Source: Escherichia coli (GTDB lineage: Bacteria > Pseudomonadota > Gammaproteobacteria > Enterobacterales > Enterobacteriaceae). Taken from it: a DNA stretch of 64,000 nt. Under the pieces are notes generated by a model. It did no database searches. It was not told the origin of the DNA and was given only the letters and a program-made list of their open reading frames with translations. The DNA lies in the NCBI RefSeq assembly GCF_050320075.1, contig NZ_CP190018.1. One strand, 5' to 3'. Both the position numbers and the translations under genes were made by a program. Positions 42,044-52,095 of the stretch are shown piece by piece; positions within the stretch are counted from its first letter, which is position 1; every line of letters starts with the position of its first letter.

Positions 42044-42868
42044 TTATCGCATTATGCCCATGAAGCCATGTACGCCCATATACACACCAACTAAGCCAAT
42101 CAACAGACTGGAAAAATAGGGGGCGCGTTTAGCGAGAGTGTTAAATCCGCTCCAGCGTTTTGCGACCTGCTGAACGCTGATTGCTGCGCCAACGCCTACG
42201 GTGACAAGCGTTAACGCCAGGCCAATGCTGAAACTGACGACCAGTGTTGCGCCCAGTGTCAGGGCTTTCAACTGAATGCATATCAACAGCACGGTAATTG
42301 CTGCCGGGCAGGGGATAAGGCCACCGGTTAAGCCAAATAGCAAAATTTGCCAGTTGGTGACCTCTCTACCATCAAAGCGTCGTTTAATGTCATTGGCATG
42401 GGCTCGTGCATGGGCATCCTGATACTCGCCATGTTCGTGATGGTGATGATGTCCATGGTCGTGGTGATCTTCGTGATCGTGGTGATGATGCTCATGATCA
42501 TGCTCGTGCATATTCTCCAGCCAGTTTCGTTCGCCGCGCCAGGTACGCCAGAACATCCAGAACGCGGTGCCAATAATGATCACTGCGGAAATCAACTGGA
42601 GCCACGGTTCTGCTGATTGAGCAGTAAAGCGCTTGCTGATCACCATCCCGCCAAAGGCAATCAACCAGACCACTGCGGTATGCGAAATGGTTGCTGCCAG
42701 TCCGAGCATCACCGCCTGTTTAATGGTGCCTTTGATGGCGATGATAAACGCCGCCATCATCGTTTTTGAGTGCCCTGGTTCCAGGCCATGAAGCGCACCA
42801 AGTAAGATGGCGCTGGGGATGAAGAACCAGGCGTTTCCTTGCTGAAGAAGAGTTGTAAATTCGGTCAT
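42044..42868 (-). CDS. rcnA: Nickel/cobalt efflux pump with His-rich loop
   Basis: 274 aa. Membrane protein with HEHDHEHHHHDHEDHHDHGHHHHHEH loop. Confidence 0.9.
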   Translation of the reverse strand: MTEFTTLLQQGNAWFFIPSAILLGALHGLEPGHSKTMMAAFIIAIKGTIKQAVMLGLAATISHTAVVWLIAFGGMVISKRFTAQSAEPWLQLISAVIIIGTAFWMFWRTWRGERNWLENMHEHDHEHHHHDHEDHHDHGHHHHHEHGEYQDAHARAHANDIKRRFDGREVTNWQILLFGLTGGLIPCPAAITVLLICIQLKALTLGATLVVSFSIGLALTLVTVGVGAAISVQQVAKRWSGFNTLAKRAPYFSSLLIGLVGVYMGVHGFMGIMR

Positions 42869-42988: not shown

Positions 42989-43261
42989 ATGTCTCATACC
43001 ATCCGTGATAAACAGAAACTGAAAGCGCGTGCCAGTAAGATTCAGGGCCAGGTCGTGGCGCTCAAGAAAATGCTCGACGAGCCGCACGAATGTGCTGCAG
43101 TTTTACAACAGATTGCTGCTATCCGTGGCGCGGTAAACGGTCTGATGCGGGAAGTGATTAAAGGTCATCTGACGGAACACATCGTTCACCAGGGGGATGA
43201 GCTAAAACGTGAAGAAGATCTGGATGTCGTTCTGAAGGTGCTGGATTCTTATATCAAATAA
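42989..43261 (+). CDS. rcnR: Ni/Co-responsive repressor (CsoR/RcnR family)
   Basis: 90 aa, divergent from rcnA. Confidence 0.9.
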
Positions 43262-43359
43262 TTTATTAACGCGATTGTAAAACTGCGGTTTTTACTCGTT
43301 TACAACGCGTGCGCTGGACATTACCATCCTCCTCTGCGATTTATCATCGCAATCAAACG

Positions 43360-43483
43360 ACTCGGGGTGCCCTTCTGCGTGAAGGCTGAGAAATACCCGT
43401 ATCACCTGATCTGGATAATGCCAGCGTAGGGAAGTCACGGACCACCAGGTCATTGCTTCTTCACGTTATGGCAGGAGCAAACT
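43360..43483 (+). promoter_or_regulatory. TPP (thi-box) riboswitch in thiM leader
   Basis: ggggtgcccttctgcgtgaaggctgagaaatacccgtatcacctgatctggataatgccagcgtagggaagtc carries the conserved CUGAGA and thi-box elements. Ends at the thiM SD/start. Confidence 0.9.
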
Positions 43484-44272
43484 ATGCAAGTCGACCTGCT
43501 GAGTTCCGCGCAATCTGCGCACGCGTTACATCTTTTTCACCAACATTCCCCTCTTGTGCACTGCATGACCAACGATGTGGTGCAAACCTTTACTGCCAAT
43601 ACCTTGCTGGCGCTCGGTGCATCCCCAGCGATGGTTATCGAAACCGAAGAGGCCAGTCAGTTTGCGGCTATCGCCAGTGCGTTGCTGATTAACGTTGGCA
43701 CGCTGACGCAGCCACGCGCACAGGCGATGCGTGCCGCCATTGAACAGGCAAAACGCTCTCAAACACCCTGGACGCTTGATCCAGTAGCGGTGGGTGCACT
43801 CGATTATCGCCGCCGTTTTTGTCTGGAACTTCTGTCTCATAAGCCAACCGCCATACGTGGTAATGCTTCGGAAATCATGGCATTAGCTGGCGTTGCTAAT
43901 GGTGGACGGGGAGTGGATACCACTGACGCCGCAGCTAATGCGATACCCGCTGCACAAACACTGGCACGGGAAACTGGCGCAATCGTCGTGGTCACTGGCG
44001 AGATGGATTATGTTACCGATGGACATCGTATCATTGGTATTCACGGTGGCGATCCGTTAATGACCAAAGTGGTAGGAACTGGCTGTGCATTATCGGCGGT
44101 TGTCGCTGCCTGTTGTGCGCTACCAGGCGATACGCTGGAAAATATCGCATCTGCCTGTCACTGGATGAAACAAGCCGGAGAACGCGCAGTCGCCAGTAGC
44201 GAGGGGCCAGGCAGTTTTGTTCCACATTTCCTTGATGCGCTCTGGCAATTGACGCCGGAGGTGCAGGCATGA
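43484..44272 (+). CDS. thiM: Hydroxyethylthiazole kinase
   Basis: 262 aa, downstream of the TPP riboswitch. Confidence 0.9.
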
Positions 44273-45069
44273 AACGAATTAACGCTCTGACGATTGCCGG
44301 TACTGATCCGAGTGGTGGTGCGGGGATTCAGGCCGATCTTAAAACCTTCTCGGCACTTGGCGCTTATGGTTGCTCAGTGATTACTGCACTGGTGGCGCAA
44401 AATACCCGTGGCGTACAGTCGGTGTATCGCATTGAGCCTGATTTTGTCGCTGCCCAGCTCGATTCGGTGTTCAGCGATGTGCGAATCGACACCACTAAAA
44501 TCGGTATGTTGGCGGAAACCGATATTGTTGAAGCGGTGGCAGAACGGTTGCAACGTTATCAGATCCAAAACGTGGTACTCGACACCGTTATGCTGGCAAA
44601 AAGCGGCGACCCGCTGCTTTCACCTTCGGCGGTTGCTACGCTGCGCAGTCGATTATTGCCACAGGTTTCATTAATAACGCCAAACTTGCCCGAAGCTGCT
44701 GCCTTGCTCGACGCGCCACACGCGCGCACCGAACAGGAAATGCTGGAACAAGGGCGATCGCTGTTGGCGATGGGCTGTGGCGCAGTGCTAATGAAAGGTG
44801 GTCATCTGGATGATGAGCAAAGCCCTGACTGGCTGTTTACTCGTGAGGGGGAACAACGATTTACTGCACCGCGCATTATGACCCAAAACACCCACGGCAC
44901 TGGTTGTACGCTCTCTGCGGCGTTGGCTGCACTACGCCCGCGCCATACAAACTGGGCTGACACCGTACAGGAGGCAAAAAGCTGGCTTTCATCGGCGTTA
45001 GCCCAGGCCGACACGCTGGAAGTTGGTCACGGTATTGGTCCGGTTCACCACTTCCACGCCTGGTGGTGA
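44269..45069 (+). CDS. thiD: Hydroxymethylpyrimidine/phosphomethylpyrimidine kinase
   Basis: 266 aa. ATGA overlap with thiM. Confidence 0.9.
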
Positions 45070-45124: not shown

Positions 45125-45952
45125 ATGAAACCAATGCAGCTAAGAATCACCAGTCGAAAAAAACTCACCGCTTTATTATGCGCTCTTGGGCTAATTTCCA
45201 TCGTTGCGATTCATCCGCGTCAGACGGTGAATTTTTTCTATTCGACAGCAATTCAGATTAAAGACTACATCCACTTCTACGGTTATCGCCCGGTTAAATC
45301 TTTCGCTATTCGCATTCCTGCCAGTTACACCATTCACGGAATAGATGTTTCGCGCTGGCAGGAGCGAATCGACTGGCAGCGGGTGGCAAAAATGCGCGAT
45401 AACGGTATTCGCTTGCAATTTGCCTTTATCAAGGCGACGGAAGGCGAAAAGCTGGTGGACCCCTATTTTTCGCGTAACTGGCAACTAAGCCGCGAAAATG
45501 GCCTGCTGCGCGGGGCGTATCATTATTTTTCCCCGTCGGTATCCGCTTCAGTTCAGGCGAGATTATTTCTGCAAACGGTGGATTTCTCACAAGGCGATTT
45601 CCCTGCCGTGCTGGACGTAGAAGAACGGGGAAAATTATCGGCAAAAGAATTACGCAAGCGGGTAAGTCAGTGGCTAAAAATGGTCGAAAAAAGTACGGGG
45701 AAAAAGCCGATTATTTACTCAGGAGCCGTTTTTTATCACACGAATCTGGCGGGCTATTTCAATGAATATCCGTGGTGGGTGGCTCATTACTATCAACGTC
45801 GTCCGGACAATGACGGAATGGCCTGGCGCTTCTGGCAGCATTCCGACCGTGGACAGGTAGATGGCATCAATGGTCCGGTGGATTTTAATGTATTTAATGG
45901 CACGGTGGAGGAGTTGCAGGCATTCGTTGATGGGATTAAAGAAACGCCTTAA
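45125..45952 (+). CDS. yegX: GH25 (lysozyme-like) family hydrolase
   Basis: 275 aa. GH25-like sequence with N-terminal hydrophobic segment. Confidence 0.75.
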   Translation: MKPMQLRITSRKKLTALLCALGLISIVAIHPRQTVNFFYSTAIQIKDYIHFYGYRPVKSFAIRIPASYTIHGIDVSRWQERIDWQRVAKMRDNGIRLQFAFIKATEGEKLVDPYFSRNWQLSRENGLLRGAYHYFSPSVSASVQARLFLQTVDFSQGDFPAVLDVEERGKLSAKELRKRVSQWLKMVEKSTGKKPIIYSGAVFYHTNLAGYFNEYPWWVAHYYQRRPDNDGMAWRFWQHSDRGQVDGINGPVDFNVFNGTVEELQAFVDGIKETP

Positions 45953-46003
45953 ATAAGAAGCAGTGATATACTCCCACCAGACTCCCTGGCAGGAAAAAGA
46001 CAA

Positions 46004-46750
46004 ATGGAACAAGCGCATACCCAGCTGATTGCCCAACTGAACGAACGTATTTTAGCGGCGGATAACACGCCGCTTTATATTAAGTTTGCCGAAACGGTAA
46101 AAAATGCCGTGCGCAGCGGGGTGCTGGAGCATGGCAATATTTTGCCCGGTGAGCGTGATTTAAGTCAGTTAACCGGCGTTTCGCGCATTACGGTGCGCAA
46201 GGCGATGCAGGCGCTGGAAGAAGAGGGCGTGGTGACGCGTTCGCGTGGTTACGGTACGCAGATCAACAACATCTTCGAATACTCGTTGAAAGAAGCGCGA
46301 GGTTTTTCTCAGCAGGTGGTATTGCGCGGGAAAAAGCCCGATACACTATGGGTTAACAAGCGTGTCGTGAAATGTCCCGAAGAAGTCGCGCAGCAGCTAG
46401 CGGTCGAAGCAGGAAGTAATGTCTTTTTGCTTAAGCGTATTCGCTATGTCGATGAAGAAGCGGTATCAATTGAGGAATCGTGGGTTCCTGCGCATTTAAT
46501 TCATGATGTTGATGCCATCGGAATTTCTCTTTATGACTACTTCCGCAGCCAGCACATTTACCCACAACGTACGCGTTCCCGCGTTAGCGCCCGGATGCCG
46601 GATGCCGAGTTTCAGTCACATATTCAGTTAGATAGCAAAATACCGGTGCTGGTGATCAAGCAAGTGGCGCTTGACCAACAGCAACGGCCTATTGAGTACA
46701 GCATCAGCCACTGTCGCAGCGATCTATACGTTTTTGTGTGCGAGGAGTAG
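46004..46750 (+). CDS. yegW: GntR-family transcriptional regulator
   Basis: 248 aa. N-terminal GntR HTH with UTRA-type C-terminal domain. Confidence 0.8.
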   Translation: MEQAHTQLIAQLNERILAADNTPLYIKFAETVKNAVRSGVLEHGNILPGERDLSQLTGVSRITVRKAMQALEEEGVVTRSRGYGTQINNIFEYSLKEARGFSQQVVLRGKKPDTLWVNKRVVKCPEEVAQQLAVEAGSNVFLLKRIRYVDEEAVSIEESWVPAHLIHDVDAIGISLYDYFRSQHIYPQRTRSRVSARMPDAEFQSHIQLDSKIPVLVIKQVALDQQQRPIEYSISHCRSDLYVFVCEE

Positions 46751-47689
46751 TTCCTCGCGCGTTGGCGCACAATCACCGCCCCGATGCCCGACAACCCACG
46801 ACGCCACTGCATTGCCCAGTAATACGGCATCCGCCAGTGGCAGACCAGAGGCTAGCCCGGCAAGTACGCCACCTGCATGACTGTCGCCCGCCCCAATGGT
46901 GTCTACTACTTGCGTTGGAAATGCCGGAATGCAGCCAGAAGCGTCGTTGCTGAAATACCATGCGCCCTCTTTATCGAGACGAATGATCAACGGCGCGGCA
47001 AATTTCTCCTGCCATTGCTTGCCAAGTGTTGTTATCTCTGCGGATAAAGCAAAACGTTCGGCGGCAATCTCAGCCTCCTGACGATTGAGTGACACTAAAG
47101 GTCGACAGGCCATGATCCGCGCCAGCAATGCATCCGGGATATCGCCAATACGTGGGCCAAAATCGATAAACGGCGTCACGTCTTGCAGCTTTTCCAGCCA
47201 TTCCACTAATAATTCGCCGCAGGGCGAGGCCAGTTGATAACCGGAAAAATAGAGCAGGCTGCCAGGCGCAACGGTTAATCGCGCCAGCCACTGGCGATTC
47301 CACTGATTTTCCACACCGCTGAATGACATAAAAGTGCGTTCGCCATCCGGCTCAACCAGCGCCAGACACCAGCCGTTATCACCTTCGGCGTTATCGATCA
47401 GGCTGATTAAGCCCTCTTTTGCCATCCGGTTGCGAATAATCTCCGCCCACACGCCCTGACCGAGCGGCAAGGCGTTACCCGCTTCGATGCCGAGGCGCTT
47501 TAACGCCACGGCAATATTCAGTGCGCAGCCGCCAACGTTAACGCTCTGCTGTTTCAGTTCGATATCGCACCCACGCCAGGGGAGGGCATAAGCGTCGGCG
47601 ATCACATCAATGACCGCCGCGCCAATCACCATAACTGGCTGACGCGTGGTTAATTCAGGCAGCAGCGTGTGTAATCGAGCGCCGCTCAT
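46724..47689 (-). CDS. yegV: PfkB/ribokinase-family sugar kinase
   Basis: 321 aa. PfkB motifs (GGCALN, DTIGAGD). 3' end overlaps convergent yegW by 27 nt. Confidence 0.8.
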   Translation of the reverse strand: MSGARLHTLLPELTTRQPVMVIGAAVIDVIADAYALPWRGCDIELKQQSVNVGGCALNIAVALKRLGIEAGNALPLGQGVWAEIIRNRMAKEGLISLIDNAEGDNGWCLALVEPDGERTFMSFSGVENQWNRQWLARLTVAPGSLLYFSGYQLASPCGELLVEWLEKLQDVTPFIDFGPRIGDIPDALLARIMACRPLVSLNRQEAEIAAERFALSAEITTLGKQWQEKFAAPLIIRLDKEGAWYFSNDASGCIPAFPTQVVDTIGAGDSHAGGVLAGLASGLPLADAVLLGNAVASWVVGHRGGDCAPTREELLLAHKNV

Positions 47690-48690
47690 ACCGCCTCCCG
47701 TTGTTGACGATATTTCGCCAGCGCTGTGGCATAGCGGTTGAAATCAAGCTGATTTACCGCATCCAGCTCCGCCTTTAACGCAGGATCGATAGCGTTAATG
47801 CCATGCAACGCGCCGCAGATTGCCGTCGCCATAGCACCGATGGTGTCTGTATCGCCGCCAAGGTTAGCGCAGAGGACGGCGCAACGGTTCGGATCGGTTT
47901 GTGCCAGTTCAACCAGCGCAATGGCGCACGGAACGGACTCAATAGTGCTGGTACCTGCGCCAACGACCTGGTAAAGCTGTTCGCTGGCGGATTCGGTGCC
48001 GTCGGCATTGCGCACAATTTTCAGCGCAATCTCCAGCCGCGCCGCCAGTGAGGCGCTGAAGGTGGTGATGCGTTTTTGCTGTGCATGTCGCGCAATCGAG
48101 GGTAGAGAATCAACAATCGCTGACCAGCTTTCTCCGTCAATGGCACGGGAAATCGCCCATGCGATGACTACCGCACCTGCAACCGCCAGATCGGATTTAT
48201 GGGTCGGGCTGGACGCCAGCGCCACATCATCAATAAAGGAATCAACATCGCGCGCCGGAAGCAAACAACCTAATGGCGAGACGCGCATCGCTGCGCCGTT
48301 GGTCACGCCATTGTTTTCCAGTTCAGCAACGGGTTTACCGTCGCGAATGGCGTTAAGCGCAATCTTCGAGGTCGGACCTAGTACGTTTTTGTTAAAGGCG
48401 TCGAAACGCAGCGCCCAGTCGAGAATATTACGCCCAATCAGATCCGGATCGATCTTGCCTTTACGTTCCAGTAACGCATCCGCCAGACACAGCGCCATCG
48501 AGGTATCGTCGGTGAATTCGGCGCGGTTAAAATAACAGGCCGCGTTATTCTCCTTTGGTCCAGGCAGAAAACGGTCAATACAGCCAAAGTGTGCTTTAAC
48601 GCGGCTGCGTGGCCAAAGCTCGGAGGGCATCCCCATCGCATCCCCTAACGCCTGCCCATAAAGAGCACCGAGAATACGTTCTGTTTTCAT
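47686..48690 (-). CDS. yegU: ADP-ribosylglycohydrolase family protein
   Basis: 334 aa. DraG/ARH-like sequence. ATGA overlap with yegV. Confidence 0.8.
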   Translation of the reverse strand: MKTERILGALYGQALGDAMGMPSELWPRSRVKAHFGCIDRFLPGPKENNAACYFNRAEFTDDTSMALCLADALLERKGKIDPDLIGRNILDWALRFDAFNKNVLGPTSKIALNAIRDGKPVAELENNGVTNGAAMRVSPLGCLLPARDVDSFIDDVALASSPTHKSDLAVAGAVVIAWAISRAIDGESWSAIVDSLPSIARHAQQKRITTFSASLAARLEIALKIVRNADGTESASEQLYQVVGAGTSTIESVPCAIALVELAQTDPNRCAVLCANLGGDTDTIGAMATAICGALHGINAIDPALKAELDAVNQLDFNRYATALAKYRQQREAV

Positions 48691-49964
48691 TTAACTTCCC
48701 CTTGTGTCAACGCAATATCGCGATCATCGACCTTGATAGCCGTAATTTCGTTGTCGGATTCGCGGAAAAAAATCATGAACAGCACGGCGATAATGGCAAT
48801 CATCACCGCGCCAAAAGTCCACATCCCGGCCCAGTTGAAAGTCAGTCCGTTTACCGGTTCCTGATAAGCGAACATCTTTTCCATCATCACACCGCCAAGA
48901 CGATAGCCGAGCAAACTGCCGAAGCCCTGGCAGCAGAGCGTGATCAGCCCCTGCGCGGCGGTACGCATATGCACGGGGGCTTTTTTATCGACATAGATGT
49001 AAGCGGTAACGTAGTAAAAATCGTAACTTACGCCGTGAAGCAAAATGCCGAGGAACAGTAACGCGTAGGTGAAATATTCATCCGCACTACCGTAAATAAA
49101 GAAGCCATAGCGGATCGCAGCGGTGACCAGACCAAGTAATAATACCTTTTTGATACCAAAGCGTTTGGTAAAAAACGGCAATGCCAGCATAAAGAAGATT
49201 TCAGAGAACTGGCCGAGCGTCATCCAGCCAGTGGCGTTTTTCATGCCAACTTCGGTCAGATAACCGTTGGCAAAGATGTAATAGAACGCCAGTGGCATCG
49301 CAAACAGAAATGAACAGAAGAAAAAGACGAGGAAGTTTTTATCGCGCAGCAGGATCAGCGCATCCAGGCCGAGCATGACTTTAATGTCCATTTTGCCGGT
49401 GCTTTTTGGCGGCGTGTCGGGCAGGAAAAACGCAAACACACCGAGCAGAGCAGAACTTCCGGCGGTAATCAGCAGCGGGATGTTAGTCGGAGAGATATCG
49501 GCATAACCCAGCATTTGCGGCAAAAATCCACATGCCAGACCGGAGGCAATCCAGCCGATAGTGCCCATCACACGAATGCGTGGGAAATCACGCTCCACAT
49601 CCGGCACGTTGGCAAAAGCGATACTGTTAGTCAGCGCAATGGTCGGCATATAGGTTAGCGAGTAGGCCAGCAGTAACGGGAAGAACCCGGCAAAAGTGGT
49701 CTGTTGCGCAGCGAAATACATCAGCGCCGCACCAGCGAACATCAATACCGCCAGCACTTTCTGCGCCGAGAAAAAGCGGTCAGTGATGGAGCCAACCAGA
49801 ATTGGCGACAGGATCGCCGCAATGGCGGTACAGGCATACGACCAGCCAATTTCTCCGGCACTAAAACCGCTTTTACTTAACCACAACCACAATGGCACAA
49901 ACCACGCGCCCCAGATAAACCATTCAACAAACATCATGAACGACAGCTTTGCTGTTGTTTTCAT
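48687..49964 (-). CDS. yegT: Nucleoside:H+ symporter family transporter (MFS)
   Basis: 425 aa polytopic membrane protein. ATGA overlap with yegU. Confidence 0.8.
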   Translation of the reverse strand: MKTTAKLSFMMFVEWFIWGAWFVPLWLWLSKSGFSAGEIGWSYACTAIAAILSPILVGSITDRFFSAQKVLAVLMFAGAALMYFAAQQTTFAGFFPLLLAYSLTYMPTIALTNSIAFANVPDVERDFPRIRVMGTIGWIASGLACGFLPQMLGYADISPTNIPLLITAGSSALLGVFAFFLPDTPPKSTGKMDIKVMLGLDALILLRDKNFLVFFFCSFLFAMPLAFYYIFANGYLTEVGMKNATGWMTLGQFSEIFFMLALPFFTKRFGIKKVLLLGLVTAAIRYGFFIYGSADEYFTYALLFLGILLHGVSYDFYYVTAYIYVDKKAPVHMRTAAQGLITLCCQGFGSLLGYRLGGVMMEKMFAYQEPVNGLTFNWAGMWTFGAVMIAIIAVLFMIFFRESDNEITAIKVDDRDIALTQGEVK

Positions 49965-50219
49965 CTTTTAATTCCTTCATGACAGGTAATGTAAGGTACG
50001 CGATGACAATACCATTTAATAATACCTTTTAAATACCTTTGCGGTGAAAACTTGACCGCGATAACATTTTTTCTGATGAATCGAGCCAACAGAAAACGCT
50101 GAAAAACATCCAAAAGATGGAAAAACTCGCCTGTAACGACCAGGATTATGATTGCCCGCAAAAGGCGGGCCAGGACAATCCATAGCCGATATCCAATCGG
50201 AATTTACGGGAGCATAGTA

Positions 50220-51389: not shown

Positions 51390-52095
51390 ACAGAAAACCC
51401 CCAGCTAGGCTGGGGGTTCCGGAAAGCTTTCAGCTTTGAGCCAGTTATTCAAACCCCTTTTGATTTGTTAAAACACCTTGCGGTCTGGCAACTGCAAGTG
51501 TCAAACAAGAAATCAAAAGGGGGTCCCAATGGGGGACGAAAAGAGCTTAGCGCACACCCGCTGGAACTGTAAATATCACATAGTTTTTGCGCCGAAATAC
51601 CGAAGACTGGCGTTTTACGGAGAGAAGCGTAGGGCGATAGGCAGTATTTTGAGAAAGCTGTGTGAGTGGAAAAGCGTACGGATTCTGGAAGCAGAGTGCC
51701 GCGCAGATCATATCCATATGCTTGTGGAAATCCCACCCAAAATGAGCGTATCCGGCTTTATGGGATATCTGAAAGGGAAAAGCAGTCTGATGCTTTACGA
51801 GCAGTTTGGGGATTTGAAATTCAAATACAGAAACAGGGAGTTCTGGTGCCGAGGGTACTATGTCGATACGGTGGGTAAGAACACGGCGAAGATACAGGAC
51901 TACATAAAGCACCAGCTTGAAGAGGATAAAATGGGGGAGCAGTTATCGATTCCATATCCGGGCAGCCCGTTTACGGGCCGTAAGTAACGAAGTTGAATGC
52001 AAATGTCAGATCGTATGCGCCTGTTAGGGCGCGGCTGGTAACAGAGCCTTACAGGCGCATTTGAAAAACCTCCGGCTATGCCGGAGGATATTTAT
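51390..52095 (+). mobile_element. IS200-family insertion sequence (boundaries approximate)
   Basis: Contains an IS200 TnpA gene. Left-end perfect hairpin aacccccagc-tag-gctgggggtt (51396-51418) and subterminal hairpins 52015-52060 and 52069-52090. About 0.7 kb, as expected for IS200. Confidence 0.75.
51529..51987 (+). CDS. tnpA: IS200 transposase TnpA (HUH/Y1 family)
   Basis: MGDEKSLAHTRWNCKYHIVFAPKYRR ... HIHMLVEIPPK (HuH motif), 152 aa. Near-identical to recalled Salmonella/E. coli IS200 TnpA. Confidence 0.9.
   Translation: MGDEKSLAHTRWNCKYHIVFAPKYRRLAFYGEKRRAIGSILRKLCEWKSVRILEAECRADHIHMLVEIPPKMSVSGFMGYLKGKSSLMLYEQFGDLKFKYRNREFWCRGYYVDTVGKNTAKIQDYIKHQLEEDKMGEQLSIPYPGSPFTGRK

Follow-up and report, generated by a model that had tools for sequence, protein, structure and literature searches.

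The yegTUV operon and its repressor gene yegW in Escherichia coli: a conserved kinase and ADP-ribosylglycohydrolase-fold module proposed to act on imported ribosides

What compound is handled by the products of yegT, yegU and yegV of Escherichia coli? In strain K-12, none of the three genes has an assigned biochemical function, despite a transporter structure and a characterized repressor. In this study, the question was addressed in a 4.84-kb stretch (positions 45125-49964) of a 64-kb window, that is, the whole 64,000-nucleotide piece of E. coli contig NZ_CP190018.1 that was analyzed. The stretch, annotated as yegT/U/V/W/X, was kept at ≥95% identity in 5420 of 5426 complete E. coli genomes. 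The answer that we somewhat favor is that yegTUV and yegW form a repressor-controlled unit for uptake, 5'-phosphorylation and hydrolysis of a non-canonical riboside. The neighboring yegX is unrelated. The locus is the E. coli representative of a module of four parts that recurs across bacterial phyla, its enzymes sometimes being fused, and the vague annotations "sugar kinase" and "ADP-ribosylglycohydrolase" could be turned into a testable pathway leading from a riboside through riboside 5'-phosphate to ribose-5-phosphate plus aglycone. Literature searches found no reaction assigned to this enzyme pair.

An earlier note, made from the letters of the window alone, had placed five genes in the stretch: a nucleoside-type transporter, an ADP-ribosylglycohydrolase (ARH)-family enzyme and a PfkB kinase, converging on a GntR regulator with a GH25 hydrolase beside it. 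The open reading frame (ORF) list and strong family matches agreed with these genes and their coordinates (Table 1). Translational coupling of yegT, yegU and yegV was borne out by direct reading of the sequence, which gave ATGA overlaps at both junctions (yegT/yegU, ...GTT AAATGAAAACA, 48687-48690; yegU/yegV, ...GCG GTATGAGCGGC, 47686-47689), each preceded by a Shine-Dalgarno-like GGGGAAG or GGGAGG. At the other end of the operon, the 3' ends of yegV and yegW meet as described, and yegX does adjoin yegW. The cryptic character also stood, as yegTUV is co-transcribed into a single 3.3-kb mRNA that was detected only in a yegW mutant, with approximately 30-fold derepression, and is normally silent (PMC10819704).

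The strongest evidence on function came from relatives of the locus. A HMMER scan of 1.84 billion representatives gave 233 YegU relatives at E ≤ 1e-30, many of them 600-760 amino acids long, and nine of ten examined proteins of this size were ARH+PfkB fusions, with both domain orders represented. A second scan, with one genome per species followed by ORF calling and clustering, gave 79 loci whose ARH proteins were 35-97% identical to YegU. These were spread over Enterobacterales, Vibrio, Aeromonas, Lachnospiraceae and other Clostridia, Bacillaceae, Lactobacillaceae, Dialister, Parasutterella, Succinivibrionaceae, Actinobacteria and Chloroflexi. In the 71 loci with a called ARH ORF, a PfkB gene adjoined ARH in 61, usually directly after it, and a GntR/UTRA regulator was present in 51; outside the gamma-proteobacterial set, adjacency was found in 30 of 37. 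Fusion being a classic link, YegU and YegV would represent two steps of one pathway.

The transporter beside the ARH-PfkB pair varied. NHS transporters like YegT accompanied the pair in 29 loci, every one of them gamma-proteobacterial, whereas 17 loci had an NCS1 permease and 11 a PnuC-family facilitator (TIGR01528, 96 bits against a cut-off of 42). An ECF transporter followed the GntR/UTRA gene in one fused form, which was of metagenomic origin. Importers of the NHS, NCS1, PnuC and ECF types are known for nucleosides, nucleobases or vitamin ribosides. Because four unrelated importer families join one invariant enzyme pair, gene context points strongly to a small imported riboside as the substrate. 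A search for aglycone-processing enzymes around the module showed that, beyond kinase, regulator and transporters, no family recurred outside local synteny, and the module therefore appears self-contained. Isolated neighbors included a DeoD purine-nucleoside phosphorylase in one case and an isochorismatase-family amidase translationally coupled to one ARH-PfkB fusion, both being no more than hints. Among 14 loci devoid of a GntR gene, no Rfam riboswitch was found upstream of the ARH-PfkB operon; the Rfam matches elsewhere in these loci were an unrelated signal recognition particle RNA, a guanidine-I riboswitch and a thiamine pyrophosphate (TPP) riboswitch.

Of the function proposed in the earlier note, uptake and processing of a ribosylated compound, the grouping of transporter, kinase, hydrolase and GntR regulator into a functional unit is thus upheld by cross-phylum conservation, fusions and transporter swapping, and the inclusion of the GH25 hydrolase has to be dropped (see below). 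Literal catabolism of ADP-ribosyl compounds, as its heading had it, is unlikely, because transporters of these types do not take up molecules of that kind. A riboside phosphorylated after uptake would fit better.

Several variants of the module were also seen. The amidase mentioned above is not a clear nicotinamidase, scoring 25.6 bits against 174. In two Vibrio loci (L028, 12047-13324; L029), an extra major facilitator superfamily (MFS)-like permease lay between kinase and regulator in addition to YegT, and in Loigolactobacillus (L082, 10968-12197) a different MFS-like permease followed the ARH gene, which widens the range of transporters further. One YegU-family protein of 692 amino acids (P0160) had two tandem ARH domains, and one locus (L090, 1815-3209) carried a second, 464-amino-acid ARH paralogue divergent from its GntR-PfkB-ARH operon.

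YegT is a member of the NHS family (PF03825, 609.6 bits; TIGR00889, 652.6 bits against a cut-off of 446.1). Its crystal structure at 3.1 Å shows that the uridine-contact residues of NupG are not kept, and binding was absent in isothermal titration calorimetry with U, A, C and G (PMC11979927). Uridine, cytidine, xanthosine and gemcitabine were not transported (PMC11241209). Canonical nucleosides have been excluded by experiment as the yegTUV substrate; YegT would take up a non-canonical riboside via proton symport.

YegU matched the ADP-ribosylglycohydrolase family at 222.9 bits (PF03747, cut-off 26.2) over 285 of 287 model positions. An AlphaFold2 model with a mean predicted local distance difference test score of 97.6 displayed the all-alpha ARH fold, and Foldseek placed it closest to MJ1187 (1t5j; template modeling (TM) scores 0.82/0.90), a protein for which we know of no function, followed by a Thermus ARH-related protein, DraG and ARH3 (TM 0.72-0.78 to DraG and ARH3). 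Residues E24, T60, D61, D62, D280, D282 and T283 align with E41, T76, D77, D78, D314, D316 and T317 of ARH3, and among 40 diverse relatives D17, E24, T60-D61-D62, H164, D280, D282 and T283 were invariant or nearly so. Since the metal ligands are conserved and the fold is predicted with confidence, YegU is very probably an active glycohydrolase. By analogy to ARH1, ARH3, DraG and Tri1, with which (as with MJ1187) it has in common the all-alpha fold and the acidic and threonine metal ligands, it presumably shares the chemistry of this family at ribose C1. To our knowledge, every characterized ARH substrate bears a 5''-phosphoester, at C5 of the ribose undergoing cleavage.

Family and fold membership together with intact catalytic residues would also suit a macromolecular de-ADP-ribosylase of the DraG/ARH1/ARH3/Tri1 kind, acting on protein or nucleic acid and standing beside its neighbors by chance, and the equivalog models of DraG and Tri1 did match YegU weakly. 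We regard this as very improbable. The matches fall far under both cut-offs (79.8 versus 337 and 69 versus 490, respectively), an ADP-ribosyltransferase partner is absent from the locus, and YegU is encoded in translational coupling with a permease and a kinase, occurs elsewhere as a fusion with the kinase and lies under a catabolic-type repressor. Its context is thus one of small-molecule catabolism, in contrast to the signaling or immunity of the characterized family, and the residues aligned to the adenine-stacking positions of ARH3, in a loop of uncertain alignment, differ.

YegV belongs to the PfkB family (PF00294, 191 bits) and was listed as an "uncharacterised sugar kinase" in a 2025 survey. 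It remained under the ribokinase equivalog cut-offs (TIGR02152, 82.9 versus 299.65; NF008353, 62.1 versus 341), and the pseudouridine kinase model was a weak match. The GG, NxxE and GAGD motifs (G53-G54, N202/E205 and G266-A-G-D269, respectively) were kept in 58-62 of 62 ARH-linked kinases. For comparison of the sugar pocket, the E. coli RbsK sequence was used, with N14, D16, K43, N46 and E143 being taken as the ribose-binding residues. Equivalents of D16 and N46 were conserved among the 62 kinases, N14 was replaced by V/F/I/M, K43 by C in 55, and A98 by Cys in 50, and the position of E143 was variable. The family thereby retains the Asp for the ribose diol and the catalytic Asp. Such family-wide replacement of N14 and K43 would be expected if the YegV substrate bears an aglycone.

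The order of the two steps can be approached from these data. In the order that we infer, the kinase acts before the hydrolase, because all ARH substrates known to us carry the C5 phosphoester, because PnuC-type facilitators depend on kinase trapping of their substrate, and because the YegV pocket is not ribokinase-like. A further reason is that the ARH-linked PfkB kinase of Salmonella has been shown by experiment to phosphorylate a riboside, aminoimidazole riboside (AIRs) (PMC3161100). In the reverse order, YegU would cleave the riboside into free ribose and aglycone, and YegV would serve as a dedicated ribokinase. This is the logic proposed for the Bacteroidetes Rus loci, where ARH genes, viewed as alternative "nucleoside-cleaving enzymes", neighbor those for ribokinases and ribose permeases (bioRxiv 10.1101/574913), and the fusions and the adjacency fit both orders; the best NCBIfam and PDB relatives of YegV are moreover ribokinases. 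Set against it are the score of YegV far below the ribokinase cut-off, the family-wide loss of N14 and K43 to hydrophobic residues and Cys, the 5''-phosphate of known ARH substrates and the presence in E. coli of RbsK already, and we consider the hydrolase-first order unlikely, though a serious rival.

On the kinase-first reading, YegV would phosphorylate the ribose 5'-OH of the imported riboside, by which the compound would be trapped in the cell and would gain the 5-phosphoribosyl handle recognized by ARH-fold enzymes. The di-metal center of YegU would then hydrolyze the bond at ribose C1, giving ribose-5-phosphate, which would enter the pentose-phosphate pathway, and a free aglycone. Candidate substrates include pyridinium ribosides (nicotinamide or nicotinate riboside), imidazole ribosides, 2'-O-ribosyladenosine and alpha-ribosides such as alpha-ribazole-type cobamide fragments. 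If this is true, the ARH fold would be extended from de-ADP-ribosylation of proteins and nucleic acids to nutrient metabolism. A wider proposal, which we hold possible though slightly on the doubtful side, is that the YegU family constitutes a new class of ARH-fold small-molecule glycosidases acting on the riboside 5'-phosphate made by YegV, and that with interchangeable NHS/NCS1/PnuC/ECF importers it represents a widespread orphan pathway of riboside salvage or catabolism in gut and soil bacteria. In this proposal the substrates are perhaps alpha-linked or pyridinium/imidazolium ribosides beyond the ordinary nucleoside hydrolases, and the published effects on glycogen and of ADP-glucose are secondary.

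Known systems offer parallels. In E. coli itself, the pseudouridine catabolic operon psuKGT (yeiC-yeiN-yeiM) likewise combines a permease, a PfkB kinase and a hydrolase in one locally regulated operon. There, a non-canonical nucleoside is phosphorylated by a nucleoside 5'-kinase, and a glycosidase then acts on the 5'-phosphate to release ribose-5-phosphate and base. The yegTUV module would be a variant of this kinase-plus-glycosidase design with a hydrolase fold not earlier tied to nutrient metabolism: psuKGT encodes a YeiN-family C-glycosidase and a CNT permease, whereas yegTUV has an ARH fold and an NHS permease, and YegT carries neither standard nucleosides nor those of the PsuT type (PMC11241209).

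The Salmonella genes STM4065-STM4066-STM4067 similarly encode a permease, a PfkB kinase (the AIRs kinase mentioned above) and an ARH-family protein, and a mutant in the ARH gene STM4067 was attenuated in the pig intestine (PMC3161100). They form a separate paralogous module, however, and YegV matched the AIRs kinase (1tyy) at E = 2.8e-5 only. The adjacent STM4068 presumably encodes a GntR regulator. Because this paralogous module contributes to gut persistence, the yegTUV substrate is, by analogy, probably a metabolite available in the gut. The Rus loci of Bacteroidetes, thought to free ribose from varied ribosylated gut nutrients, also cluster ARH genes with a regulator, a permease and kinases of the ribokinase family (bioRxiv 10.1101/574913). 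They differ in being loci of the polysaccharide-utilization type with SusC/D and true ribokinases induced by ribose.

YegW is a GntR/HutC-type protein with an N-terminal winged helix-turn-helix (wHTH) domain (PF00392, 59.2 bits) and a C-terminal UTRA domain (PF07702, 125.5 bits). In these domains, in control of the adjacent operon only and in a sugar-phosphate- or nucleotide-like ligand, it resembles single-target HutC/UTRA repressors such as NagR/DasR, TreR, PhnF and MngR/FarR. Its operator and inducer, posed as an open question in the earlier note, were taken up in a 2024 publication, so that this point is outdated. The protein was renamed GgaR, a single genomic target was found by chromatin immunoprecipitation with microarray detection (ChIP-chip), and in the electrophoretic mobility shift assay (EMSA) it bound strongly to the fbaB/yegT spacer (190-bp probe 2) and weakly inside yegT (probe 5, ORF nt 571-869); the paper gives no operator motif (Saito et al. 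2024, PMC10819704).

Read along the yegT strand, the spacer contains, in this order, a CRP-like site, TTCACC and AAAGGTATTTAAAAGGTATTATTAAATGGTATTGTCATCGCGTACCTTACATTACC (50040-49985). Alignment of 29 orthologous spacers showed that three GGTAT(T) half-sites and a downstream GTACC are conserved and that the flanks diverge. The array was found in Escherichia, Citrobacter, Enterobacter, Kluyvera, Pectobacterium and Budvicia, and a Vibrio variant contains TGGTATT...AATACCA. A 27-nt operator pattern had only two matches in the window (50011-50037 and 49131-49157), the pattern having been derived from both. Because the two matches coincide with the only two EMSA-positive probes (PMC10819704), we propose that GgaR recognizes the GGTAT array as its operator. 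The GGTATT hexamer itself occurred 55 times in the window against 25 expected from dinucleotide shuffles, an excess probably due to GGT-ATT codon pairs; single half-sites are therefore not evidence of GgaR binding, and the array alone is informative. The predicted yegTUV promoter has 9 of 12 consensus matches, such matches being no commoner than in shuffled sequence, and a promoter and terminator scan of the region likewise gave hits in numbers not above those in shuffled sequence. GgaR bound to the array, which extends from -35 to about +25 of the yegT promoter, and to the weaker copy within yegT would keep the operon off; because the array covers the promoter to about +25, repression would be by occlusion. 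The proposed operator, three direct GGTAT half-sites plus an inverted TACC, differs from the single short palindrome of the HutC/UTRA repressors named above.

A CRP site detected by systematic evolution of ligands by exponential enrichment (SELEX) has been reported in the fbaB/yegT spacer (PMC3105977). The core TGTTA-N6-TCA, which most of the orthologous spacers of enterobacteria retain, is a candidate for this site; it lies at about -46 from the predicted start, and this spacing is non-canonical. yegTUV is probably under CRP control, and the CRP site in the spacer argues for a catabolic character of the operon.

The coding 3' ends of yegV and yegW share 27 bp (46724-46750, ORF coordinates), and the overlap was exactly 27 bp in 20 enterobacterial loci. 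This pair is among the convergent overlaps supported by RNA-seq in ExcludonFinder (PMC12288877), and it agrees with the definition of an excludon, i.e., convergent genes with overlapping transcripts. No convincing terminator was found between yegV and yegW in the scan of the region. Because the overlap is kept in 20 loci and the pair is RNA-seq-supported, induced yegTUV transcription may cross it and run antisense into yegW, by which induction would be reinforced in a possible positive feedback. The overlap also bears on mutant alleles. In Keio-type deletions, reportedly, the last 21 nt of the deleted gene are retained. As the overlap is 27 bp, we infer that deleting either gene in this way would cost its partner the last codon and the stop codon; such alleles would not be clean, and the phenotypes published for yegW and yegV mutants may have more than one gene behind them.

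These phenotypes belong to the published model, in which ADP-glucose is acted on by yegTUV, or glycogen synthesis is fed by it in some other way, while GgaR, as a sensor of ADP-glucose, tunes glycogen storage. ADP-glucose at 10-100 µM freed GgaR from DNA in EMSA, ADP and glucose being inactive, and the yegW mutant had approximately twofold glycogen (PMC10819704). The yegV mutant was glycogen-deficient on ADP-glucose medium (PMC6195507). On the other hand, these three compounds were the only effectors tried, and induction by glucose was approximately 3-fold as against the approximately 30-fold derepression in the mutant (PMC10819704). The cross-phylum ARH-PfkB-GntR module with PnuC, NCS1 and ECF importers showed no recurrent link to glg genes, and the deletion alleles would carry the damage to the overlapping partner described above. 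ADP-glucose carries ADP on C1 of the sugar and not on C5, unlike known ARH substrates, and so does not suit ARH chemistry. The model, built on three ligands and on deletion alleles that probably damage the overlapping partner, is in our judgment quite improbable, and we think that the glycogen effects are secondary to derepression of a transporter, a kinase and a phosphoribosyl hydrolase. YegW would be released by a nucleotide-like or phosphorylated sugar ligand, as it is by ADP-glucose in vitro, and in the cell the substrate of the pathway, or the 5'-phosphate of that substrate, is probably the inducer. The proposed operator motif offers a handle for reporter screens.

Several points weigh against the riboside reading. 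Characterized ARH enzymes cleave alpha-linked ADP-ribosyl groups, not riboside monophosphates, and F143 and Y149, which stack on adenine in ARH3, align to E123 and V129 of YegU, the alignment of this loop being uncertain. The nearest solved relatives of YegV are ribokinases, with which the opposite step order is possible, and it is an assumption that RbsK N14 and K43 line the part of the ribose pocket facing the anomeric carbon and ring oxygen. The GgaR operator and the yegTUV promoter are predictions, and when the yegT-internal operator-like copy was examined for conservation beyond coding constraint, third-position identity was not clearly above the gene average. Finally, ADP-glucose as published effector and the glycogen phenotypes are not directly explained by the riboside model.

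Table 1. Coordinates of genes and predicted sites in and around the yegTUV-yegW locus (window positions; genes from the window ORF list and the RefSeq annotation of an identical strain)
Feature	Position	Strand	Remarks
yegT	48687-49964	-	NHS-family MFS H+ symporter, 425 aa; first gene of the operon
yegU	47686-48690	-	ADP-ribosylglycohydrolase (ARH) fold, predicted di-metal hydrolase, 334 aa
yegV	46724-47689	-	PfkB-family kinase, 321 aa; predicted riboside 5'-kinase
yegW (= ggaR)	46004-46750	+	GntR/HutC-type, wHTH + UTRA; convergent with yegV
Candidate primary GgaR operator	49985-50040	-	AAAGGTATTTAAAAGGTATTATTAAATGGTATT-N9-GTACC-N5-TTACC; inside EMSA-positive 190-bp probe 2
Three direct GGTATT half-sites	50037-50032, 50026-50021, 50013-50008	-	Followed by inverted (G)TACC
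Second, weaker operator-like copy in yegT	49131-49157	-	GGTATCAAAAAGGTATTATTACTTGGT; ORF nt 808-834; inside EMSA-positive probe 5
Predicted sigma-70 promoter of yegTUV	50019-50048	-	-35 TTCACC 50048-50043, 18-nt spacer, -10 TATTAT 50024-50019
CRP-like candidate TGTTA-N6-TCAAG	50066-50051	-	Just upstream of the predicted -35
yegX	45134-45952	+	GH25, PF01183; RefSeq start 45134, longest ORF from 45125
thiM	43484-44272	+	ORF list + RefSeq
thiD	44269-45069	+	ORF list + RefSeq
fbaB	from 50220	+	RefSeq start

YegX is a membrane-anchored GH25 protein (PF01183, 186 bits, 180 of 180 model positions) whose best PDB relatives are lysozymes, cellosyl (1jfx), autolysins and endolysins, and whose PHROG matches are endolysin families. 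Among all fetched related loci (79), tblastn found YegX in those of E. coli only. The gap between thiD and yegW, which is 934 bp in E. coli and holds yegX, was ≤166 bp in 12 further species of enterobacteria that share this gene order, being 35-77 bp in nine; in Superficieibacter (L010) it was 866 bp and held an unrelated ORF. With muramidase relatives, restriction to Escherichia among the 79 loci and thiD abutting yegW elsewhere, the GH25 gene could not be retained as a part of the module. As judged from homology and synteny, yegX is an Escherichia-specific insertion of a peptidoglycan muramidase between thiD and yegW, with no module role; peptidoglycan, on which it acts, is unrelated to ribosides. 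A prophage remnant or recent transfer was considered for yegX; its base composition is unremarkable and the gene is present in nearly all E. coli.

Some observations were made on the surroundings of the locus. The longest ORF of fbaB begins at 50148 rather than at the RefSeq start of 50220; with the latter, the yegT-fbaB spacer is approximately 255 bp and not 183 bp. A TPP riboswitch (RF00059, 71.8 bits) was located at 43353-43449 (+), upstream of thiM-thiD. In the genera devoid of yegX, only 35-77 bp separate the end of thiD from yegW, which has the same orientation, and read-through from the riboswitch-controlled thiMD unit into yegW is possible. Just upstream of thiMD are rcnA, encoding a histidine-rich Ni/Co efflux protein (42044-42868, -), and rcnR (42989-43261, +), which are ordinary and unrelated. 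On the other side, this strain carries an IS200/IS605 insertion element between fbaB and gatY (51396-51987, +), which includes a tnpA ORF and, at 51396-51519, a match to the Hfq-binding RNA STnc490 (143.9 bits).

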